A stretch of DNA of 32,000 nucleotides from Rhodocyclaceae bacterium. Lineage in GTDB: Bacteria; Pseudomonadota; Gammaproteobacteria; Burkholderiales; Rhodocyclaceae. Positions 5,037-31,850 of the stretch are shown in pieces. The position numbers and the translations under genes are program-made. The stretch spans positions 1 through 32,000 of the forward strand of contig JBAYVG010000012.1 in the NCBI GenBank assembly GCA_041674785.1, written 5' to 3'. The notes under the pieces were generated by a model, which had not been told where the DNA came from, did not search any database, and worked only from the letters and a program-made list of their open reading frames with translations. Each line of letters opens with the position of its first letter. The stretch's first letter is position 1.

Positions 5037-6527
5037 ATGGCACTCGCCATCGTCCGTAGCCGAGGTCTCGACGGCCTCGCCGCACCGGCGGTGGCGGTGG
5101 AAGTACATCTCGCCGGCGGCTTGCCCTCGGTCACCCTGGTCGGACTGCCCGATACCGAAGTCAAGGAAGCGCGTGACCGCGTGCGGGCTGCGCTGATCAA
5201 TTCCGGCTTCGAATTTCCCGCCCGCCGTATCACCATCAACCTCGCGCCGGCTGATTTGCCAAAAGAATCCGGACGCTTCGACCTGCCCATCGCGCTCGGT
5301 ATTCTTGCGGCATCCGGCCAGATACCGGGCGACCGACTCGGCCAGTACGAATTTGCCGGAGAACTCTCGCTTTCCGGCGAATTGCGCCCGGTCCGCGGCG
5401 CACTGGCCATGGTGCTGGCGGCAGACGGCGAAGCACGCAGTTTCGTGCTGCCCGTGGAAAGCGCTGCAGAAGCGGCACTGGTTCGCCCCGAAGGGATTCT
5501 TGCCGCCGGCAGCCTGCTCGCCGTCTGCGCCCACCTGCGCGGCGACGACGTGCTGGCGACTGCAACCGCCGCCGCCAGCGAAGCCCCGACACAATACCCC
5601 GACCTGGCCGAGGTACGCGGCCAGGCGCAGGTCAAGCGCGCGCTTGAAATCGCTGCGGCCGGCAGCCATTCGCTGCTGATGTCCGGCCCCCCGGGCAGCG
5701 GCAAATCCATGCTGGCCGCCCGCTTGCCAGGCCTGCTGCCGGCACTGGAAAATGCGGCGGCACTTGAATCGGCTGCTGTCCTCTCACTGGCGGGGAAATT
5801 TCGGCCGGCGCAGTTCGGCCAGCGGATTTTTCGCAACCCGCACCACACCGCCTCGGCGGCCGCACTGGTTGGCGGCGGCAGCACACCGCGCCCGGGCGAG
5901 ATTTCACTGGCGCACAATGGGGTGCTCTTTCTCGATGAACTGCCGGAGTTCGACCGGCGCGTGCTGGAGTCGCTGCGTGAACCGCTGGAGAGCGGCCACA
6001 TCCACATCTCCCGCGCCGCCCGGCATGCCGAGTTCCCCGCCCGTTTTCAGCTCGTTGCAGCCATGAATCCTTGTCCCTGCGGATGGCACGGCGACCCCTC
6101 CGGACGCTGTCGCTGCACACCCGACCAGGTCACACGCTATCGCGGCAAGCTCTCGGGGCCGCTGCTCGACCGCATCGACCTCAACGTGGAAGTCCCGGCA
6201 GTACCGGCGGAAGCCCTGCAAAAGTCTGCTGACGGGGAGTCATCCGCCAGCGTGCGTCAACGGGTCAGTCGCGCGATGAGCAGGCAACTGCAGCGCCAGG
6301 GCAAGCCCAACGCCCGCCTCGGCACCAAGGAAATCGACCTGCACTGCCAACCGGATGCCGCCGGTGCCGCCTTGCTGAAACAGGCCGCAACACGCCTTGG
6401 CCTGTCGGCGCGCGCCTTTCACCGCGTCCAGAAAGTAGCGCGCACCATCGCTGATCTGGCGGGTGCAGAGCAGATCGGTGCCGCGCACATTGCTGAGGCG
6501 GTACAGCTTCGCCGGCAAGCGAATTGA
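5037..6527 (+). CDS. comM: YifB/ComM family Mg-chelatase-like AAA+ ATPase
   Basis: 496 aa. N-terminal Lon-protease-like domain (VEVHLAGGLPSVTLVGLPDTEVKEARDRV), Walker A MSGPPGSGKSML, Walker B GVLFLDELPEF, a Cys cluster NPCPCGWHGDPSGRCRCTPDQV, and the C-terminal ChlI-like tail. Confidence 0.9.
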   Translation: MALAIVRSRGLDGLAAPAVAVEVHLAGGLPSVTLVGLPDTEVKEARDRVRAALINSGFEFPARRITINLAPADLPKESGRFDLPIALGILAASGQIPGDRLGQYEFAGELSLSGELRPVRGALAMVLAADGEARSFVLPVESAAEAALVRPEGILAAGSLLAVCAHLRGDDVLATATAAASEAPTQYPDLAEVRGQAQVKRALEIAAAGSHSLLMSGPPGSGKSMLAARLPGLLPALENAAALESAAVLSLAGKFRPAQFGQRIFRNPHHTASAAALVGGGSTPRPGEISLAHNGVLFLDELPEFDRRVLESLREPLESGHIHISRAARHAEFPARFQLVAAMNPCPCGWHGDPSGRCRCTPDQVTRYRGKLSGPLLDRIDLNVEVPAVPAEALQKSADGESSASVRQRVSRAMSRQLQRQGKPNARLGTKEIDLHCQPDAAGAALLKQAATRLGLSARAFHRVQKVARTIADLAGAEQIGAAHIAEAVQLRRQAN

Positions 6528-6533
6528 AAAACT

Positions 6534-6885
6534 TTAACCACAGCGGGCACGGTGAAAACATGGCGGCCCTGATCCTTAAAACCTCCATTCAAACCACGAA
6601 GCGCACGAGGAAATTCAGGCGAATACTAGCGATGCCGGCAATCACCGTATTGTTTCGGCCCGGTGAACTCAAAAAGCGCCGTCATACCGGCGAAAGCCGG
6701 TACCCAGTATCTGAGAGGAAGCGCCGACTGGACCCCGGCTTTCGCCGGGGTGACGAATTCATAGCGCTTCGGGCCTCATCAATAGCGGTGAAGGTAAAGG
6801 CTGTTTCAACGTATTGTTTCTCTTCGTGCTCTTCGTGCGCTTCGTGGTTAACAGGTTAATTCTTCACCGTACCGGCCGTGGTTAG
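6534..6885. repeat. Composite nested MITE-like element (outer TTAACCAC-ended element, inner CACGAAG-phased element, innermost palindromic doublet)
   Basis: Outer inverted ends are 6534-6556 and 6863-6885 (19 of 23 complementary). Inner inverted ends are 6587-6614 and 6817-6852, with CTTCGTG at 6822, 6831 and 6840. The inner element aligns with the reverse complement of 24764-24904, apart from an inserted block of about 140 bp at about 6650-6790. Confidence 0.7.
6680..6755. repeat. REP-like palindromic doublet (two inverted GC hairpins)
   Basis: CGTCATACCGGCGAAAGCCGGTACCC (6680-6705; hairpin 6685-6702) pairs in inverted orientation with GACCCCGGCTTTCGCCGGGGTGACG (6730-6754; hairpin 6733-6750). 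The sequence type resembles the widespread GC-hairpin repeats that spuriously translate as ...PAKAG.../...FAGMT...-like peptides. Confidence 0.6.
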
Positions 6886-6909
6886 CTGCTTTTGAAACAA
6901 GCCCCCACC

Positions 6910-8118
6910 ATGAAACCCCCACTTTCCGACCGTGGCTTCGCACTGCTGCTCGCGGCGCTATCGTCTCTGGGGCCGTTCTCGATTGACACTTATCTGCCGT
7001 CATTTCCGGAAATGGCCGAGCGCCTCAGCGCAACGCCACTGGAGGTGCAGCAGACACTTTCCGCCTACCTGATACCGTTTGCCGCCATGGCCTTGTGGCA
7101 CGGCGCCATCTCCGACGCACTCGGCCGTCGCCGCGCCATCCTCTGGGCGCTTGTGCTTTTCGGCATTGCCTCGGCAGGCTGCGCCTTCGCCACGCGCATC
7201 GAGCATCTCTGGTTGCTACGTGCGCTGCAGGGCATCAGCGCCGGTGCCGGCATCGTCATCAGCCGCGCCATCGTGCGCGATCTCTACGACGGGGCCGCAG
7301 CGCAGAAGCTCATGTCGCACGTTGCCATCACCTTCGCGCTGGCACCGGCCATTGCCCCGGTGATCGGTGGCTGGCTGCAATCGTGGTTCGGCTGGCGTTC
7401 GGTCTTCGTTTTCCTGACATTGCTCACCAGCACCCTGTTGCTTGCCTGCTGGCGCTGGTTACCGGAAACGCTGCCGCCAGAAAAACGGCAGTCCCTGCAC
7501 CCGGCTTACCTCGTCCGTACCTACCAGAAAGTGCTCGGCACCCCCAGCTTCCTGGCCGCCACCGCCGCGCTCGCATTCAATTTCTGCGGCTTCTTCGTCT
7601 ACGTACTGTCAGCACCAATGTTTCTGATAACCCACCTCGGCGTCTCCGAACGCGAATTCCTCTGGCTGTTCGGTCCGGCAATGGGCGGGCTGATGCTGGG
7701 CAGCTGGTTCTCCGGCCGCCTTGCCGGCAAATTGACGCCGCTGCAATGCATCGGCCGTGGCTACATTGTCATGGCCATCGCTGTGGTGCTCAATCTGGCC
7801 ATCAGCCAGGGGCTGCCGTCAGGGCTCCCGTGGAGTGTGCTGCCCCTTTTTGTCTACACCACCGGCATGGCGCTGGCGATGTCGGCGCTGACGATTCTCG
7901 CGCTCGACCCCTTCGCCAATGAGCGCGGACTGGCGGCCTCATGCCAGACCTTTCTGCAATCCGGCACCAATGGCCTCGTCGCCGGACTGGTCGTGCCGCT
8001 GCTCTGGAGCAGCACCCAAACGCTGGCTTTTGGCATGGCCGGGTTTGCACTTGTCGGCGCCGCCGCAACCGGGCTTTACCTCAAGGCATCTGTCGGCAGT
8101 GCGTCTCGCGCGCCATAA
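6910..8118 (+). CDS. MFS transporter, Bcr/CflA drug-resistance subfamily
   Basis: FALLLAALSSLGPFSIDTYLPSFPEMAERL and GAISDALGRRRAIL motifs, 12 predicted TM segments. ATG at 6910 is preferred over the TTG at 6892 used by the ORF track. Neither has a clear SD. Confidence 0.8.
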   Translation: MKPPLSDRGFALLLAALSSLGPFSIDTYLPSFPEMAERLSATPLEVQQTLSAYLIPFAAMALWHGAISDALGRRRAILWALVLFGIASAGCAFATRIEHLWLLRALQGISAGAGIVISRAIVRDLYDGAAAQKLMSHVAITFALAPAIAPVIGGWLQSWFGWRSVFVFLTLLTSTLLLACWRWLPETLPPEKRQSLHPAYLVRTYQKVLGTPSFLAATAALAFNFCGFFVYVLSAPMFLITHLGVSEREFLWLFGPAMGGLMLGSWFSGRLAGKLTPLQCIGRGYIVMAIAVVLNLAISQGLPSGLPWSVLPLFVYTTGMALAMSALTILALDPFANERGLAASCQTFLQSGTNGLVAGLVVPLLWSSTQTLAFGMAGFALVGAAATGLYLKASVGSASRAP

Positions 8119-21708: not shown

Positions 21709-22602
21709 ATGCGCATCGGGGTCGACCTCGGCGGTAGCAAGATCGAAGTTGCGGCCTTCAACGGCCTGAGTGCGCTTGCCCGCCGGCGCATCGCCACCCC
21801 GCAGGGCGATTACCTGGGCACGGTGATGGCCGTCGCCGGGCTGGTGGAAGCCATCGAAAACGAACTCGGCCAACGCGGCACGGTGGGTATCGGTATCCCC
21901 GGTACCGAATCGGCACAGACCGGCCTGATCAAGAACGCCAACTCCACCTGCCTGATCGGCAAGCCGCTGAAACGCGACCTGCAAGCCATGCTCCAGCGTG
22001 AAGTCCGGCTGGCCAACGACGCCAACTGCTTCGCTCTTTCGGAAGCCATCGATGGCGCAGGGCAGGGGGCCGAAACGGTGTTCGGTGTCATCCTCGGTAC
22101 CGGCGTCGGCGGCGGCATCGTTATTCGTGAGCAAGTACTCACCGGTGCCAACGGCATTGCTGGCGAATGGGGGCACAACGCGCTGCCGAACCCGAGTGCA
22201 GCCGAACTGGCCGGCCCCGCCTGCTATTGCGGCCGCAGCGGCTGTGTCGAAACCTGGCTGTCCGGGCCGGGCATGCAGCGCGACCACCTCGCCGTTACCG
22301 GCAATACAGCGGACCCGGCAAGCATCGCCGCCAGCGCGGCGGCGGGCGATGCCGCCTGCCAAGCCACGTTGCAGCGCTACGCAGAACGGCTGGCCCGGGC
22401 GCTGGCCGTGGTCATCAACATCCTCGACCCGCAGGTGATCGTGCTCGGCGGCGGCCTGTCGAACATTGACCACCTCTACGACGCAGTCCCCCGCCTGTGG
22501 CTGCCGCATGTCTTTTCCGACCACATCGCCACCCGCCTGAAGAAGCATCGCCACGGCGATGCATCCGGCGTGCGCGGCGCGGCCTGGCTGTGGGGTGAAT
22601 GA
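21709..22602 (+). CDS. nagK: ROK-family N-acetylglucosamine kinase
   Basis: MRIGVDLGGSKIEV, VGIGIPG, VRLANDANCFALSEA, ILGTGVGGGIV, EWGHN, CYCGRSGCVETWLSG (Zn Cys motif), VLGGGLSN and HGDASGVRGAA are all colinear with E. coli NagK. The start is 1 nt after the can stop. Confidence 0.85.
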   Translation: MRIGVDLGGSKIEVAAFNGLSALARRRIATPQGDYLGTVMAVAGLVEAIENELGQRGTVGIGIPGTESAQTGLIKNANSTCLIGKPLKRDLQAMLQREVRLANDANCFALSEAIDGAGQGAETVFGVILGTGVGGGIVIREQVLTGANGIAGEWGHNALPNPSAAELAGPACYCGRSGCVETWLSGPGMQRDHLAVTGNTADPASIAASAAAGDAACQATLQRYAERLARALAVVINILDPQVIVLGGGLSNIDHLYDAVPRLWLPHVFSDHIATRLKKHRHGDASGVRGAAWLWGE

Positions 22603-22613
22603 TGGAGACCGTT

Positions 22614-22748
22614 TTAACCACGAAGATCTCGAAGGACACGAAGAAAAGACCAAACCTTTTCGATTACCGTCCATTCGTTTGCGAAGAGAATGAACCGGCA
22701 ATTTTTTCTTTGTTTTTCCTTCGTGATCTTCGTGCCCATCGTGGTTAA
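22614..22748. repeat. MITE-like element, cleanest copy (135 bp, TTAACCAC...GTGGTTAA ends, 3 x 9-bp-phased CGAAG units per arm)
   Basis: Left arm is 22614-22648 with CGAAG at 22621, 22630 and 22639. Right arm is 22713-22748 with CTTCGTG at 22719 and 22728 and CATCGTG at 22737. The arms are inverted. The element fills the nagK-MOSC intergenic space and ends 14 nt before the MOSC ATG. Confidence 0.7.
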
Positions 22749-22762
22749 TTGAATTTTAGAAA

Positions 22763-23452
22763 ATGAACAACACCCGCCTCTTTACCGGCACCCCGGTCCG
22801 CATCGACGATGAAGGCCAGTTCAGTGCCATCTGGAAAGAGCCGCTGACCGGGCCGGTGCGCATCACCCGCGAAGGCTTGGCCGGTGACGTGCAGGCCGAC
22901 CGGCGCGTACACGGTGGCCCGGAGAAAGCCGTGCATCACTATGCCGGCGAAAACTACGCCAGGCTGGCGGCGGCTTTCCCGCAGATCGCCGAAACGCTGG
23001 TCGTCGGCAGCATCGGCGAGAACATCTCGACTTTCGGCCTCGACGAGACAAAAGTCTGCATCGGCGACATTTTCCGCATAGGCTCGGCACTGCTGCAGGT
23101 GTCGCAACCGCGCCGGCCATGCTGGAAGATCGACAGCCGCTACGGTCAGAAGGGCATCACTGCGCACATCGTCGAAACCGGCCTGACCGGCTGGTATTAC
23201 CGGGTGCTGGAAGAGGGCGAAGCAGCTCCGGGAGACGACTTCGAACACCTCGAACGACCAGCCGGCGCCGTCTTGCTCGATACCCTGTGGACCACCTGGC
23301 ACTGCCATCGGCCGGATACCGACAAGCTGGCGGCCATTGCCGAGGCCCCCGGCCTGACCCCGGCCTGGGTAAAGAAGATCTGCGACCGACTCGACTGGCT
23401 GGCGGCCAATACCGGCACGATCGCCAGCTCTCCCGGCAGCGGCCAGCGCTGA
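22763..23452 (+). CDS. MOSC domain protein (YiiM-like)
   Basis: 229 aa. GLAGDVQADRRVHGGPEKAVHHY and LLQVSQPRRPCWKI (conserved Cys) are colinear with E. coli YiiM. Confidence 0.85.
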   Translation: MNNTRLFTGTPVRIDDEGQFSAIWKEPLTGPVRITREGLAGDVQADRRVHGGPEKAVHHYAGENYARLAAAFPQIAETLVVGSIGENISTFGLDETKVCIGDIFRIGSALLQVSQPRRPCWKIDSRYGQKGITAHIVETGLTGWYYRVLEEGEAAPGDDFEHLERPAGAVLLDTLWTTWHCHRPDTDKLAAIAEAPGLTPAWVKKICDRLDWLAANTGTIASSPGSGQR

Positions 23453-24678
23453 TGCCGCTGTACAAGCTGTTTTTGCCCTTTGCCGGGGCTTACTTCCTTT
23501 CCTATTTTTTCCGCTCGGCCAATGCCGTCATCGGGCCGGAGCTGGCGCGCGACCTCGGGCTTTCGGCCGGCGACCTCGGCCTCTTGACCAGTACCTACCT
23601 GCTCAGTTTCTGCCTGGCACAACTGCCGCTGGGCATGCTGCTCGACCGCTTTGGCGCCCGTCGCGTCGAATCGGCACTGCTGCTTTTTGCCGCCCTCGGC
23701 GCGCTGCTTTTTGCCCTGGCCGAGAGCATGGCCGGGCTGGCGGCGGCCCGGGCAATTATCGGCCTCGGTGTCTCGGCCTGCCTGATGGCCGCCTTCAAGG
23801 CTTTTTCGCAAGCCTATCCACCCGACCGGCAGGCCTCGCTGACCGGCTGGATGATGACCTCCGGCGGCCTCGGGGCACTGGCCGCCACCGCCCCGCTGGA
23901 AGCGCTGCTGCACTTCGCCGGCTGGCGCGAGATCTTTTTCGTGCTGGCGGCGGCAACGCTGGCATCGGCCGCCTGGCTGTTCTTCGGCATCGCGGACAAA
24001 CCGATGAATTCCGCCCACCCGACCCATCCAGCAGAGGGTTTCGCGGCGCAATGGCGCGGCGTGCGGCAGATCGTCGCCAGCCGCCACTTCTGGCGTTTTG
24101 CTCCGCTTGGACTGACGATGACTGGCGGCTTCATGGCCGTGCAGGGCTTGTGGTCCATGGTCTGGCTGATGCAGGTGAACGGCTATTCGCGCGCCGAAGC
24201 GGCCGATCATCTGGCGGTGATGAGCATCGCCATGCTGTTTACCTACATCGGCATCGGTCTACTCGCCACGCGCCTGGCCCACCGGGGAATCCCACCCGTT
24301 CGGCTATTTGCCGGCGGCGTTGGCCTGTCGATCGTGATGCTCGGGTTGATCGCCGGCGAGGTGCTGCCGGCGACCCGCCTGCTGTGGATCGCCTACGGCC
24401 TGTGTGCCGGCTTTGGCACCCTCGGCTACTCGCAGACTGCTGCTGGTTTTCCGCTGCATCTGGCCGGCCGGGCAACGACCACCTACAACCTGATGGTCTT
24501 TGCCGGTGGCTTCGGTGCCCAGTGGGGCATGGGGCTGCTGATCGACCTGCTGACGGGGCAGGGGATGCTTGAAGCCAACGCCCTGCGGGTGGTTTTCGGC
24601 CTCTTGCTGGCACTGCAGATTGCGGCCTTCGGCTGGTTCATGTTCACCCGACGCCCGACGCCCGCCCCGTCTCCCTGA
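23452..24678 (+). CDS. MFS transporter (unknown substrate)
   Basis: ATG at 23452 overlaps the MOSC stop (TGATG). Begins MPLYKLFLPFAGAYFLSYFFRSANAVIGPELARDLGLS, has the MLLDRFGARRV loop motif, 12 TM segments, 408 aa. Confidence 0.8.
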   Translation: MPLYKLFLPFAGAYFLSYFFRSANAVIGPELARDLGLSAGDLGLLTSTYLLSFCLAQLPLGMLLDRFGARRVESALLLFAALGALLFALAESMAGLAAARAIIGLGVSACLMAAFKAFSQAYPPDRQASLTGWMMTSGGLGALAATAPLEALLHFAGWREIFFVLAAATLASAAWLFFGIADKPMNSAHPTHPAEGFAAQWRGVRQIVASRHFWRFAPLGLTMTGGFMAVQGLWSMVWLMQVNGYSRAEAADHLAVMSIAMLFTYIGIGLLATRLAHRGIPPVRLFAGGVGLSIVMLGLIAGEVLPATRLLWIAYGLCAGFGTLGYSQTAAGFPLHLAGRATTTYNLMVFAGGFGAQWGMGLLIDLLTGQGMLEANALRVVFGLLLALQIAAFGWFMFTRRPTPAPSP

Positions 24679-24740
24679 CCGTTCGCCCCCGCCCAACGGC
24701 GCATCACTGCAGCCGTAAATCTGATGTAATAGCGCGGCCG

Positions 24741-24904
24741 TCAATTGAACCGGGGAAATCCGGTCAACCACGGAGAGCACGAAGTTTACGAAGAGAAACA
24801 ATAGGTTGAAACAGCCATTACCGTCACTTCCTCGGTGATTGCTGACATCTCGTGTATTTGCCTGGATTTCTTCGTGCGCTTCGTGGCCTTCGTGGTTTGA
24901 ATTG
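24741..24904. repeat. MITE-like element, third copy (same family as 6587-6852, opposite orientation)
   Basis: Left arm is 24764-24798 with CACGGAG, CACGAAG and TACGAAG in 9-bp phase (24769, 24778, 24787). Right arm is 24867-24904 with CTTCGTG at 24870, 24879 and 24888, followed by GTTTGAATTG. The interior GGTTGAAACAGCC is the complement of GGCTGTTTCAAC at 6799-6810. Confidence 0.7.
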
Positions 24905-24945
24905 CGGTTTTTTAGTTTGAAACATCCCGGACAGCTATCGATGCC

Positions 24946-26124
24946 TTGCCGAAACTCCCTGCTGAGCGCGCTGTGGAACTGATCAACCCGCGCACCTTCC
25001 TGATCGTTGCCAATCTGCTCGGCCTGCTTTGCGCGCTGGTGCTGTGGGTGCAGGCACGCAGCTTCCCGGCCGACATCGAGGGGCTGCGCGACTGGGCCAA
25101 GGCGGTCGTGCTGATGGGTTGCGCCTCGGGCCTGGCCTCGCTGCGCGGCTTTATTCCCGACGGGGTTTCCATCGTGCTCGCCAGCGGCATGCTGCTGCTC
25201 GGCGAACTGCTGCTGGTCTTTGGCCTTTTGCGCTACACCGGTCGCAAACCGCACTGGCGCCCGGCCATCGATGCCATCATCGGGCTCATCGTCCTGCTCA
25301 CCTGGCTGACCTATGGCAGCCATAGTTATCAGGGCCGCATCTTCATCATGTCGCTGGCCCACATCACCCTCTTCTCGCTCGGTGCGTGGCTGGCCTGGCA
25401 GGTCAAACCGACCGGTTTCGGCAGCCGTTTCCTGACGGCTGCTTTCGTCTTGGGAGTCGCTGCCGCCGTGTGGCGACTGGCGACGCTGTCGATGAACGTA
25501 ACCGAGGCCGATGAAGTTTTTGACCGCAGCCTGATCCAGCAGATCTATCTCGGTGCTTTTTCGCTCGGCATCCTCGGCCTCTCGATCGGCTTCATCATCA
25601 TCGCCAACGAGCGCTTGCGCGAGGAACTGGAGTACCTGGCCACGCGCGACCCAATGACCGGCGCCCTCAACCGGCGCGCCTTCTTCGCCCGCGCCGATGT
25701 CGAGTGGGCGCGCTCGGCCCGTTCGCAGCGACCGCTGGCAGTGATCGCCTCGGATATCGATTTCTTCAAGAAGGTGAACGACACCTTCGGCCACCATGTC
25801 GGCGACCTCGTGATCAAGGACTACGCCAACCGAGCCGGCCACATGCTGCGTCTGCCCGATATCCTGGCCCGTTTCGGCGGCGAGGAATTCGTCATCCTGC
25901 TGCCGGATACGGGCATGAAGGAAGCCTGCCAGGTCGCCGAGCGCATCCGTAAGGAAGCGGAGAAGCGCCAGGACAAAAACCTGCCGCCCTTCACCGTCAG
26001 CCTCGGTGTCGCCGTCGCCAACACCGGTCAGGGCGATTTTCCCGATCTCGCCGCCTTGCTCGCCCATGCCGATGCGGCGCTTTACAAGGCCAAGCAGGGG
26101 GGACGGAATCGGGTGGAGCGTTAA
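24946..26124 (+). CDS. Membrane-anchored GGDEF diguanylate cyclase (6-7 TM N-terminal domain)
   Basis: C-terminal GGDEF domain: DPMTGALNRRAF, DIDFFKKVNDTFGH, RFGGEEF active site with RLPD (RxxD I-site) 5 residues upstream, and ALYKAKQGGRNRV. The start is uncertain (TTG 24946 or GTG 24973). Confidence 0.85.
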   Translation: MPKLPAERAVELINPRTFLIVANLLGLLCALVLWVQARSFPADIEGLRDWAKAVVLMGCASGLASLRGFIPDGVSIVLASGMLLLGELLLVFGLLRYTGRKPHWRPAIDAIIGLIVLLTWLTYGSHSYQGRIFIMSLAHITLFSLGAWLAWQVKPTGFGSRFLTAAFVLGVAAAVWRLATLSMNVTEADEVFDRSLIQQIYLGAFSLGILGLSIGFIIIANERLREELEYLATRDPMTGALNRRAFFARADVEWARSARSQRPLAVIASDIDFFKKVNDTFGHHVGDLVIKDYANRAGHMLRLPDILARFGGEEFVILLPDTGMKEACQVAERIRKEAEKRQDKNLPPFTVSLGVAVANTGQGDFPDLAALLAHADAALYKAKQGGRNRVER

Positions 26125-30158: not shown

Positions 30159-31850
30159 ATGACTTCGCAGACGCTTGGGCAATCGCCCGAAATTGAACAG
30201 CTCGAACTGATCCAGCGACTGGGGCGGATCGGCTACTGGGAATACGAACCGGCCGCGCACAAATTCTGGCTGCCAGCGCCTTCGCTGCAATTGCTGTCGT
30301 CGATGACCGGCAGTTCGCGCGAGGCGGCGCCAAATCTGCGCGACGTGATGTCGGAGGCCGAGCGCAAGCGCTTTCTGGTTGCGCTGGAACAGGCTGTCAG
30401 CGGCCAGTTGCCCTTGCATCTGGAACTGCAGCTGGCCAGCTATCGCGGCCAGCACGCGACCATTGTCGTCAAGGGCACACCGCTCGAAGGGAAGGGCCAT
30501 GCGATCCGCTTTGGCGGCACTTTCCACGATATCACCCGTGAAAAGCGCGTGGAAGCCGAACGCGAGGAAGTCCTCAGCCAGCTCAACGCACTGCTCGGCG
30601 GCCTGCCGGTCGGCGTCACAGTCTTCGACGAAGACCTGCGCCTGATCTTCTGGAACGACCATATCTACGACATCCTCGGCCTGCCGCAGGGCGCCGTTTA
30701 CAAATATGTGCGCTTCGAGGACCTGATCCGCTATCCGGCAGATCGCGGCGAATACGGCCCCGGCGATCCAGCCGAACTGGTGGCCCAGCGCGCCGTGCTG
30801 GCGCGCAAATTCGAGGCGCACCGCTTCGAGCGCGCCGCCCGCGATGGCCGGACGCTGCTGGTCGATGGCTACCCCTTCCGCTTTGGCGGCAAGGTTTCAG
30901 GTTTTGTTACCACCTACACCGACATCACCGACCGCAAGCAGACCGAGGAACAGTTGAAGCGCCAGAACGGCGTTCTCAATACCATCATCGAGAATTTCCC
31001 CGGCGCCATTTCTCTCTTCGACGCCAGCCTGCACATGGTGGCCTGCAACCAGCAGTTCAAAACCCTGCTCGAACTCCCGGATTCACTGTTCGACAAGGAA
31101 GTTGTCTACTTCGAGGATTTCATCCGCTACAACGCCTACCGTGGCGAATACGGGCCCGGAGATCCGGAGGAGCAGATTGCCGGTGCGCTGGAACGTGCAC
31201 GGAATTTCCAGGCGCACAATGTCGAACGGGTCCGCCCGAACGGCAAGGCGCTGGAAATTCGTGGCACACCGCTACCCGGCGGCGGCTTTGTCTCGATCTA
31301 CATCGACATCACAGAACGCAAGCGGGCCGAAGAGCGTATCCGCAGCATGGCCCTGGAAGATTCACTGACCGGCCTGCCCAACCGGCTCAGCCTGAACGAT
31401 CAGATTGAGCAGGCGCTGGAACGCTTCCGCAGTAACAGCCAGCATTTTTCGCTGCTCTTCCTCGATCTCGACGGCTTCAAGAAGGTGAACGATTCCCTCG
31501 GACACGATGCAGGCGACGAGCTGCTGGTCCAGGTCGCCAGGCGGCTGAAGGAGTGTGTGCGGGAAACGGACAGCGTTGCCCGTCTGGGCGGTGACGAGTT
31601 CGTGGTGCTGCTGCGCGATGTGGAAGGCGCCGCCATTCCGGAAAAAATCGCCGGTGAGATCATCGCTCGACTCGCCGAGCCATTTAGCCTGCAGGCCGCC
31701 GAAGCCCGTATCGGCACTTCGATAGGCATTTCGCTGTGCCCCGAGCATGGCGACAACCGCGAAGCGCTGCTCAAGGCAGCCGACCAGTCGATGTATGCCG
31801 CCAAGTCCGCCGGGCGCGGTACCTGGCGAATGGCAGGCACCGCCGACTGA
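30159..31850 (+). CDS. Cytoplasmic multi-PAS GGDEF diguanylate cyclase
   Basis: ATG at 30159 with a GGAGGAGG RBS. One N-terminal PAS-like module is followed by two paralogous PAS modules (each with RGEYGPGDP and ending YTDITDRK / YIDITERK), then GGDEF (DSLTGLPNR, DLDGFKKVNDSLGH, RLGGDEF with RETD I-site, MYAAKSAGR). Confidence 0.9.
   Translation: MTSQTLGQSPEIEQLELIQRLGRIGYWEYEPAAHKFWLPAPSLQLLSSMTGSSREAAPNLRDVMSEAERKRFLVALEQAVSGQLPLHLELQLASYRGQHATIVVKGTPLEGKGHAIRFGGTFHDITREKRVEAEREEVLSQLNALLGGLPVGVTVFDEDLRLIFWNDHIYDILGLPQGAVYKYVRFEDLIRYPADRGEYGPGDPAELVAQRAVLARKFEAHRFERAARDGRTLLVDGYPFRFGGKVSGFVTTYTDITDRKQTEEQLKRQNGVLNTIIENFPGAISLFDASLHMVACNQQFKTLLELPDSLFDKEVVYFEDFIRYNAYRGEYGPGDPEEQIAGALERARNFQAHNVERVRPNGKALEIRGTPLPGGGFVSIYIDITERKRAEERIRSMALEDSLTGLPNRLSLNDQIEQALERFRSNSQHFSLLFLDLDGFKKVNDSLGHDAGDELLVQVARRLKECVRETDSVARLGGDEFVVLLRDVEGAAIPEKIAGEIIARLAEPFSLQAAEARIGTSIGISLCPEHGDNREALLKAADQSMYAAKSAGRGTWRMAGTAD

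Follow-up and report, generated by a model that had tools for sequence, protein, structure and literature searches.

Small palindromic repeats bounded by inward-facing arms of phased 9-bp units in a Rhodocyclaceae contig, in other bacterial phyla and in phages

Bacterial MITEs (miniature transposable elements with inverted repeats; e.g., Correia/NEMIS, MITEAba12, or Nezha) are small, non-coding, multi-copy intergenic sequences with inverted ends, which are present or absent at orthologous sites, join one set of ends to several unrelated interiors, and are able to change the expression of neighbouring genes. Repetitive extragenic palindromic (REP) sequences, together with the bacterial interspersed mosaic elements (BIMEs) and REP doublets forming hairpins (REPINs) built from them and the REP-associated tyrosine transposases (RAYTs, of the HUH Y1 type), are palindromic extragenic repeats without target-site duplication, nested with other palindromes or arranged in tandem mosaic arrays, with a short conserved module across distant taxa and a mobilising gene that is single-copy and located elsewhere (PMC3733652, PMC3116915). 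Likenesses to both groups are found in the repeats analysed here, three copies of which lie within 32,000 nucleotides of a Rhodocyclaceae bacterium (assembly GCA_041674785.1, contig JBAYVG010000012.1, positions 1 to 32,000; hereafter the window). Both ends of each copy are formed by an array of 9-bp units, named here the arm. It is proposed, tentatively and with somewhat less than even confidence, that the repeats are non-autonomous palindromic elements mobilised in trans via multimeric recognition of their arms, probably without duplication of the target, and that they belong to a very widespread and apparently unnamed family.

A preliminary description, made from the window sequence, reported inverted CACGAAG arms at three loci (22614-22748, 6587-6852, and 24741-24904). 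This was confirmed by searching both strands for the pattern CACGAAGNNNNCGAAGNNNNCGAAG with up to two mismatches: six matches were obtained, all inside the three loci as inward-facing pairs, when 0.01 were expected and none of 100 dinucleotide shuffles reached six. The exact heptamer CACGAAG occurs 15 times in the window (5.2 expected), and a profile hidden Markov model built from betaproteobacterial copies matches the window at these three loci only. The copies are about 135-280 bp long, the element as such measuring about 130-180 bp; they are non-coding, have inverted arms of 19-28 nt at both ends, and are all intergenic between co-directional genes (ComM-like and MFS, ROK and MOSC, MFS and GGDEF). 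Copies 2 and 3 are one element in opposite orientation, with 85% identity over 68 and 54 nt (both halves); copy 1 has its arms in common with them and its interior only in part. The reported 9-bp phasing of the units is exact. Three units per arm are found in copies 1 and 3 and at the right end of copy 2, but the left arm of copy 2 has two (6595-6610), and the units are not the uniform CGAAG repeats first described, as degenerate ones occur in copy 1 (CTCGAAG, CATCGTG), copy 2 (CACGAGG), and copy 3 (CACGGAG, TACGAAG). An exact TTAA flank, similarly, is confined to three ends, the two of copy 1 and the right one of copy 2. The view of these loci as non-coding, non-autonomous, hairpin-forming repeats with inverted arms is supported, and the RNA fold z-scores on the two strands are -5.2 and -5.6 for copy 1 and -5.5 and -2.7 for copy 3. 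The loop of copy 2 carries an insertion of roughly 100 bp with two inverted 29-nt REPs, which are of the CGTC-tagged class (PMC3733652), have no kinship to the arm family, and are missing from the sister copy 3, where the alignment shows a gap; it follows that, after the divergence of copies 2 and 3, another family of palindromic repeats has been on the move in this genome.

The family is defined by its arms only. At each end, ACC is followed inward by 9-bp units, of which there are two to six. The unit consists of a heptamer (C, A or G, C, then purines; CACGAAG in the window) and a free 2-nt spacer, as in CACGAAGNN; three such units read (CACGAAGNN)3. Inward-facing pairs in other genomes number 68, spaced 52-391 bp, and the median length in a second set of 100 non-redundant hairpins is 89 bp. 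At the positions left free in the scan (the first two bases of units 2 and 3), C is found in 97% and A in 88% (G in 10%), which corresponds to 1.4-1.9 bits, and the spacer bases hold 0.2-0.4 bits with a purine bias (GA, GG, AA, AG). The heptamers and not the spacers are thus the constrained part, which supports the earlier suggestion of binding sites, the phased units resembling recognition sites and not mere stem filler; complementarity of the spacers between arms is weak (8/24 and 7/24 vs 3.6 and 3.1 expected). Outward of arms not selected by the pattern only TT[T/G][A/C]AC continues, beyond which the CACGAAG strand is purine-biased for about 10 nt, and many arms are preceded by TGAAC. The interiors are unrelated between phyla and of several types within one metagenome-assembled genome (MAG) (loci L032, L078, L081, and L110; L numbers denote our collected loci); the interior is arbitrary. 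Betaproteobacterial copies further have in common CTAAAAACC..AATTCAAACC as outer and AGAAACAATAG as inner block. It can be added that an outer block, AATTGAGGTTT (GGTTYCGAAAATTGAGGTTTGAGTC-ATG) joins arms to start codons of phage genes (L150, L153, L164; L149, L156), and that a near-identical one (GGTTAATTGAGGTTTTAAGG, GGTTTGAATGGAGGTTTTAAGG) flanks betaproteobacterial copies (L062; window 6575-6595).

The heptamer can be switched over a whole arm (CACAGAG, CACGGAG, CACCAAG, CATGAAG, CACAGAT, CACGAAT), and two types face each other in one hairpin at L083, L107, L010, L103, L200, and L236, which argues that the arms evolve in concert as 9-bp tandem arrays. The number of units is 2 to 6 and need not be equal in the two arms of an element; it also varies at an orthologous position in phages, with three CACAGAG units in one contig vs six in another (L196 and L243). 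Whole hairpin units also form head-to-tail arrays (L152 3903-4342, 84 bp x 5.2; L039 1488-1924, 109 bp x 3), which contain arms of two heptamer types and are similar to the BIMEs of E. coli. Longer unrelated palindromes enclose the elements L105, L115, and L117; apart from such individual cases, an element-specific extension of the palindrome into the flanks was no better than in shuffled pairs.

The arms are not restricted to the window. A scan of one genome per GTDB species with the pattern AACCACGAAGNNNNCGAAGNNNNCGAAG (20 specified bases), for which about one chance match in 596 Gb is expected by our own calculation, gave at least 120 genome loci in about 12 phyla. Among the matches listed, paired arms are found in Pseudomonadota (alpha, beta, gamma), Desulfobacterota and relatives, Acidobacteriota, Planctomycetota, Verrucomicrobiota (including Kiritimatiellia and Lentisphaerae), Chloroflexota, Nitrospinota, Methylomirabilota, Gemmatimonadota, and Binatia, and solitary arms in Nitrospirota, a cyanobacterium, and a leptospire; the closest arm-bearing loci in this listing belong to Accumulibacter and Rhodocyclaceae MAGs (L062, L065). 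The exact pattern was also found in 39 IMG/VR viral contigs, and the CACAGAG variant in at least 120 of such contigs vs 6 for a composition-matched permuted control. In PLSDB plasmids and cultured-phage genomes blastn revealed no arms, only chance matches. Several copies per MAG or phage occur outside the window as well. That the family is not local, extending over about 12 phyla plus real phages, is absent from the preliminary description, as are the conservation of the arms across phyla and phages, the variant heptamers, the tandem arrays, and the solitary arms.

A few of the matches listed are coding false positives (e.g., the Lys-rich N-termini of pyruvate phosphate dikinase, PPDK, in L056 and L098). 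The Lys-rich N-terminal extension of PPDK in these two Acidobacteria (L056 3909-3945; L098 4559-4592) reads TTKVAKRTTKVAK / TTKSTKATKATK, is written in the nonamer AACCACGAAG, and may be an arm captured into coding sequence. A supposedly conserved arm downstream of glyS in three Acidobacteria was rejected, as it resolved into two coding false positives and one real hairpin. In L091 (labelled Salinisphaera sp. G21_0), group II intron domains (RF02001, RF01998) lie at 2579-2971, 1.7 kb from a hairpin of the family, which is nearly identical to one in an Endozoicomonas MAG (L115).

The preliminary description considered the loci to be mobile insertions, and this is supported by the orthologous sites in metagenome contigs that encode relatives of the MOSC protein. 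In five of them (L124-L127, L134; MOSC 74-77% identical), the ROK stop overlaps the MOSC start (ATGA), a Shine-Dalgarno (SD)-like sequence lies inside the ROK end, and no element is present. The closest relative (L123, MOSC 87%) carries copy 1 at the same site in a decayed state: its units include CACGGGG and CACGGAG, and only two CTCCGTG units are left of the right arm. The site of copy 3, between the MFS and GGDEF genes, is empty in both L123 and L124, and further relatives have no arm in about 6 kb each. The window copies are therefore insertions, the orthologous sites of relatives being empty. As copy 1 is shared by two lineages and copy 3 is absent from L123 and L124, copy 1 is an old insertion and copy 3 a younger one, with which the better-preserved arms of copy 3 agree; copies of different age coexist. 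Also confirmed is the gap of 14 nt between the end of copy 1 and the MOSC ATG, in which no SD-like sequence is found: copy 1 supplies the MOSC 5' leader (GGTTAATTGAATTTTAGAAAATG) and has split a formerly overlapping pair of ROK stop and MOSC start, and the ROK protein of the window lineage has a shortened C-terminus (…AWLWGE and the stop codon). The insertion would have broken the translational coupling of ROK and MOSC, giving rise to the SD-less MOSC leader, and the inserted element would be co-transcribed with the neighbouring genes as a long hairpin.

Table 1. Coordinates of the three window copies, their arms, and the genes at the copy 1 junction
Feature	Position	Strand	Remarks
Copy 1 (TTAACC...GGTTAA)	22614..22748	.	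40-nt arms, 78% complementary; between ROK stop (22602) and MOSC ATG (22763)
Copy 1 left arm, AAC-CACGAAG-AT-CTCGAAG-GA-CACGAAG	22616..22643	+	0 mismatches to arm pattern
Copy 1 right arm, minus-strand AAC-CACGATG-GG-CACGAAG-AT-CACGAAG	22719..22746	-	1 mismatch
Copy 2 including outer block CCTTAAAACCTCCATTCAAACC (6575-6595)	6575..6852	.	opposite orientation to copy 3
Copy 2 short arm, two units AAC-CACGAAG-CG-CACGAGG	6592..6610	+	
Copy 2 full arm, minus-strand AAC-CACGAAG-CG-CACGAAG-AG-CACGAAG	6822..6849	-	0 mismatches
Nested CGTC-tagged REP doublet in copy 2 loop (CGTCATACCGGCGAAAGCCGGTA... / ...CCCCGGCTTTCGCCGGGGTGACG)	6680..6755	.	29-nt arms, 83% complementary, 18 nt apart
Copy 3 including outer block GGTTTGAATTGCGGTTTTTTAG	24741..24915	.	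profile match E = 3.5e-42
Copy 3 left arm, AAC-CACGGAG-AG-CACGAAG-TT-TACGAAG	24766..24793	+	1 mismatch
Copy 3 right arm, minus-strand AAC-CACGAAG-GC-CACGAAG-CG-CACGAAG	24870..24897	-	0 mismatches
ROK-family kinase gene	21709..22602	+	PF00480, 1.8e-74; stop pushed away from MOSC start by copy 1
MOSC-domain gene	22763..23452	+	PF03473, 1.5e-33; 5' leader is the copy 1 right end

The surroundings are those of an ordinary chromosome of a Rhodocyclaceae/Accumulibacter-like betaproteobacterium. Copy 2 lies between the ComM-like gene (stop 6527) and an MFS gene (start about 6892-6911), and copy 3 between an MFS stop (24678) and a GGDEF start (24973 as called in L121). The window encodes isochorismatase, AmtB/P-II, ComM-like, MetH, NamZ, amidase, carbonic anhydrase, ROK kinase, and MOSC proteins, MFS transporters, and two GGDEF proteins, whose genes share a 54-nt stretch of 80% identity (25753-25806 and 31464-31517), an ordinary paralogy.

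According to the preferred reading, that of a trans-mobilised palindromic element, the arms would be arrays of putative recognition sites for a multimeric protein supplied in trans, one protomer per 9-bp unit, and the likeness of the arm sequence from phylum to phylum would be due to this protein. Transfer of the element as a folded single strand, or through a site-specific recombinase, in a REP/REPIN-like manner, appears somewhat more likely than cut-and-paste by a DDE transposase, because no target-site duplication was found, the hairpin is long on both strands, and the elements are nested and form BIME-like arrays. The window elements themselves look purely selfish: the sites are empty in relatives, and old copies decay.

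In favour of this reading, the earlier statement that no transposase lies nearby is supported, as none of 30 window open reading frames (ORFs) has a transposase, integrase, or recombinase domain. Several other results weigh against it. A search of 2.45 Mb of fetched arm-bearing loci revealed no mobilising gene. No arm pair lies there at the distance expected of an insertion sequence (IS), and in all-against-all clustering of 1708 ORFs combined with Pfam no gene family recurs beside the arms, whose neighbours are ABC ATPases, epimerases, glycosyltransferases, sulfatases, and sigma factors. Among 112 ORFs beside solitary arms no transposase family is present in the best 25 of 103 families, and Pfam analysis of the ORFs between inward-facing phage arms revealed no transposase. 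MuA/MuB homologues were not found in the fetched loci by tblastn, and a crude HUH signature detected one unrelated IS200-type gene, 6.6 kb from an arm. A full-length partner with the same ends that encodes a transposase or RAYT, for which the preliminary description had suggested looking, was thus not present in these loci, so the name MITE in the strict, IS-derived sense is unproven. The target site gives evidence in favour: in 100 non-redundant elements, direct repeats (offsets 0-9, lengths 2-8) are no more frequent than in shuffled controls, and TTAA, the candidate duplication of the preliminary description, is rejected, being neither a general flank nor a target-site duplication. Against the reading, copy 1 can be read with a 5-bp AATGA duplication and copy 3 with TTGAAC/TTGAAAC; both readings are ambiguous because the relatives are too diverged to fix the element ends. 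Moreover, solitary arms, which are common in phages, cannot transpose as two-ended elements, and the arm at one orthologous phage site shows an invariance that suggests, as judged from the sequences, a selected function over pure selfishness.

The latter data lead to the most serious alternative, in which the arms are a selected cis-acting signal in bacteria and phages alike, i.e., a protein-binding DNA array or an RNA leader or hairpin for termination, processing, or translation, and the palindromic copies spread by duplication or recombination and are kept for their function with no dedicated transposase. The arm-bearing viral contigs are real phages, encoding terminase, portal, Mu-like head protein, integrase, tape measure, and tail fibre, and one 34-kb phage has at least 10 arms. 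Solitary phage arms, in either orientation, lie exactly between the stop codon (often TAA or TGA within T[TA/GA]ACC) and the next start of terminase, portal, tape measure, and tail fibre genes. A comparison of 22 non-identical loci at one orthologous phage site shows flanking coding DNA of 88-93% identity around an arm that does not vary, its 8 free positions included. Each unit with one of the commonest spacers (GA, GG) contains an SD-like AAGGA or GAGGA, and the gene that follows often has the last unit as its SD; four or more consecutive T are found within 5-20 nt after about 20% of arms; the hairpins are long and stable on both strands; and CACAGAG/CTTTGTG hairpins would pair in RNA via G-U (L236). 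On the other hand, the orientation to the flanking genes is not fixed, copies 2 and 3 being opposite and phage arms both sense and antisense, and copy 1 decays in each of the two lineages that share it. Relatives with the same genes have no element at the window sites, which means that the host does not need the elements there. In addition, no Rfam family covers the arms, the terminator scan did not call the window copies (copy 3 is followed by GGTTTGAATTGCGGTTTTTT), and many interior families on the same arms give the look of trans-mobilised elements. Given the placement and invariance of phage arms, their SD-like units, and the T-runs, a selected cis-acting role remains a serious rival or complement of trans-mobilisation, although on its own we consider it a doubtful explanation. 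By eye, a reading of TTGAAC...CG as a sigma-70 or extracytoplasmic function sigma factor promoter was discarded, as the spacing does not fit. In one 42.6-kb viral contig (L220), a Cas2-like ORF (5363-5716; PF09827, E = 2.5e-6) is located between two inward-facing CACAGAG arms.

It is conceivable, and we give it only modest credence, that ACC and the nonamer array it bounds, (C-A/G-C + purines + NN)n, form a cis-element common to bacteria at large and read by one conserved predicted nucleic-acid-binding protein or machine, under purifying selection in phage leaders and mostly found as mobile inverted pairs in bacteria. If so, "MITE" would be only the selfish face of a new and widely shared recognition system, and the candidate binders would be a new domesticated recombinase family with a filament of 9 bp per protomer or a host factor acting on leaders or hairpins. 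The phage data make it possible to test whether the arm serves as a leader or operator signal.

An unlikely explanation, ranked below the cis-acting signal, is a classical MITE derived from a DDE transposon with multi-site ends (in the style of Mu, Tn7, Tn552, or IS21), moved by cut-and-paste or replicatively by an autonomous relative elsewhere in the genome. Short directly repeated sites, inverted at the two ends, are the hallmark of such ends (Mu attL/attR, Tn7, Tn552/Tn5053, IS21) and are shared by the nonamer elements, and the possible AATGA at copy 1 has the 5-bp length of Mu and Tn7 duplications. The right end of phage Mu reads TGAAGCGGCG-CACGAAA-AA-CGCGAAA-G, with two heptamers 9 nt apart; the Mu R1 heptamers differ from CACGAAG-NN-C[A/G]CGAAG by A/G differences only, and the Mu terminus TGAAG can be compared with the TGAAC before many arms. 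However, this likeness is subject to a look-elsewhere effect and serves as a lead only. Mu sites are 22-bp and bipartite, whereas the nonamer arms are uniform 9-bp arrays; G stands at the position of the terminal "TG" in only about 30% of unbiased arms; the Mu relatives B3 and BcepMu share only TGAAGCG..GCGCGA[AT]A at their ends and have no nonamer array, and the ends of D3112 have neither. The lack of any enriched fixed-offset duplication, including a regular 5-bp one, and of MuA/MuB homologues in the fetched loci also stands against a DDE origin, and no rve-type gene stands out there. Repeated motifs inside the ends as multimeric transposase-binding sites are further known from eukaryotic elements (Emigrant/Lemi1, Ac/Ds, CACTA), which belong to another domain of life and have other motifs, so this is an analogy only; in the Emigrant MITE, the pogo-like partner is reported to bind repeated motifs in a subterminal position (PMC1636448).

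The phylum range of chromosomal integrons overlaps that of the nonamer arms. The elements might accordingly be taken for integron attC-like sites, i.e., ORF-less cassettes or solo attC moved by an integron integrase on the folded strand, since both are folded-strand palindromes bounded by AAC...GTT, as in attC R boxes, with 7-bp boxes, often-unpaired spacers between them, insertion without target-site duplication, and head-to-tail unit arrays (here of about 84-109 bp). This explanation is nevertheless largely refuted and very improbable: the core consensus GTTRRRY is mostly absent (GTTCAA, GTTTGA, GTTAAT), extrahelical bases are missing from many hairpins, which are perfect palindromes (L081, L036, L029), the copies are dispersed in both orientations and not in a single one, neither intI nor another recombinase is linked to them in the window, and the flanked genes are present in relatives that have no elements. 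Chance low-complexity sequence or coding tri-codon repeats, to which the few Lys-rich coding matches (PPDK N-termini) do belong, are refuted for the window copies, which lie between called genes, as shuffles expect 0.01 matches, the permuted control gave 6 vs 39 and at least 120, and no reading frame across the arms dominates.

The remaining question is whether the family has already been described. At the gathering threshold, Rfam gave no match over the arms in the window nor in 16 loci of other phyla; at E<=10, positions 22500-25000 gave chance weak matches only, including a miRNA model with E=1.4 over copy 1, and a SorX match from the E<=10 scan is below gathering and inside an MFS gene. 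A description of the family was not found in the full-text literature searched, although ISfinder, Dfam, or a genome paper in a subscription journal may hold one. The paper on GTAG and CGTC REPs and TIRYTs does not treat the nonamer-arm motif (PMC3733652). The preliminary description did not recognise the family by name, and with no Rfam model and no account in the literature searched, this assessment holds.

In comparison with bacterial MITEs, the family differs in that neither a cognate IS nor a regular target-site duplication was found and that its arms are 9-bp arrays of variable number. To our knowledge, no named bacterial MITE has a reach near that of these arms (about 12 phyla plus phages). 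Differences from REPs are also evident. A REP folds alone, whereas a single nonamer arm is a direct purine-rich array that is not self-complementary and pairs only with the other arm; the conserved module is about 27 nt of phased heptamers instead of a tetranucleotide; and the GTAG/CGTC tag is not present on nonamer elements, which end in TTKMAC-CACGAAG, the CGTC tag of the window being limited to the nested doublet. A RAYT or TIRYT gene flanked by arms was not found in the fetched loci. The elements thus work like MITEs and REPINs in behaviour, and membership in neither group is established, given the lack of a fixed target-site duplication on the one side and of REP self-palindromy or tag on the other. 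If the proposed explanation is correct, a single arm design is common to hundreds of thousands of small repeats from a dozen or more phyla and their phages, and a not yet named recognition protein with unusually conserved specificity is implied. It would also account for one recurrent source of spurious small ORFs, of assembly breaks, and of N-terminal extensions rich in Lys or Glu, and would show how operons are rewired by such insertions, as here with ROK uncoupled from MOSC. Finding the protein that recognises the arms would extend the short list of known movers of palindromic repeats, which comprises the RAYTs and the IS-derived partners of MITEs.

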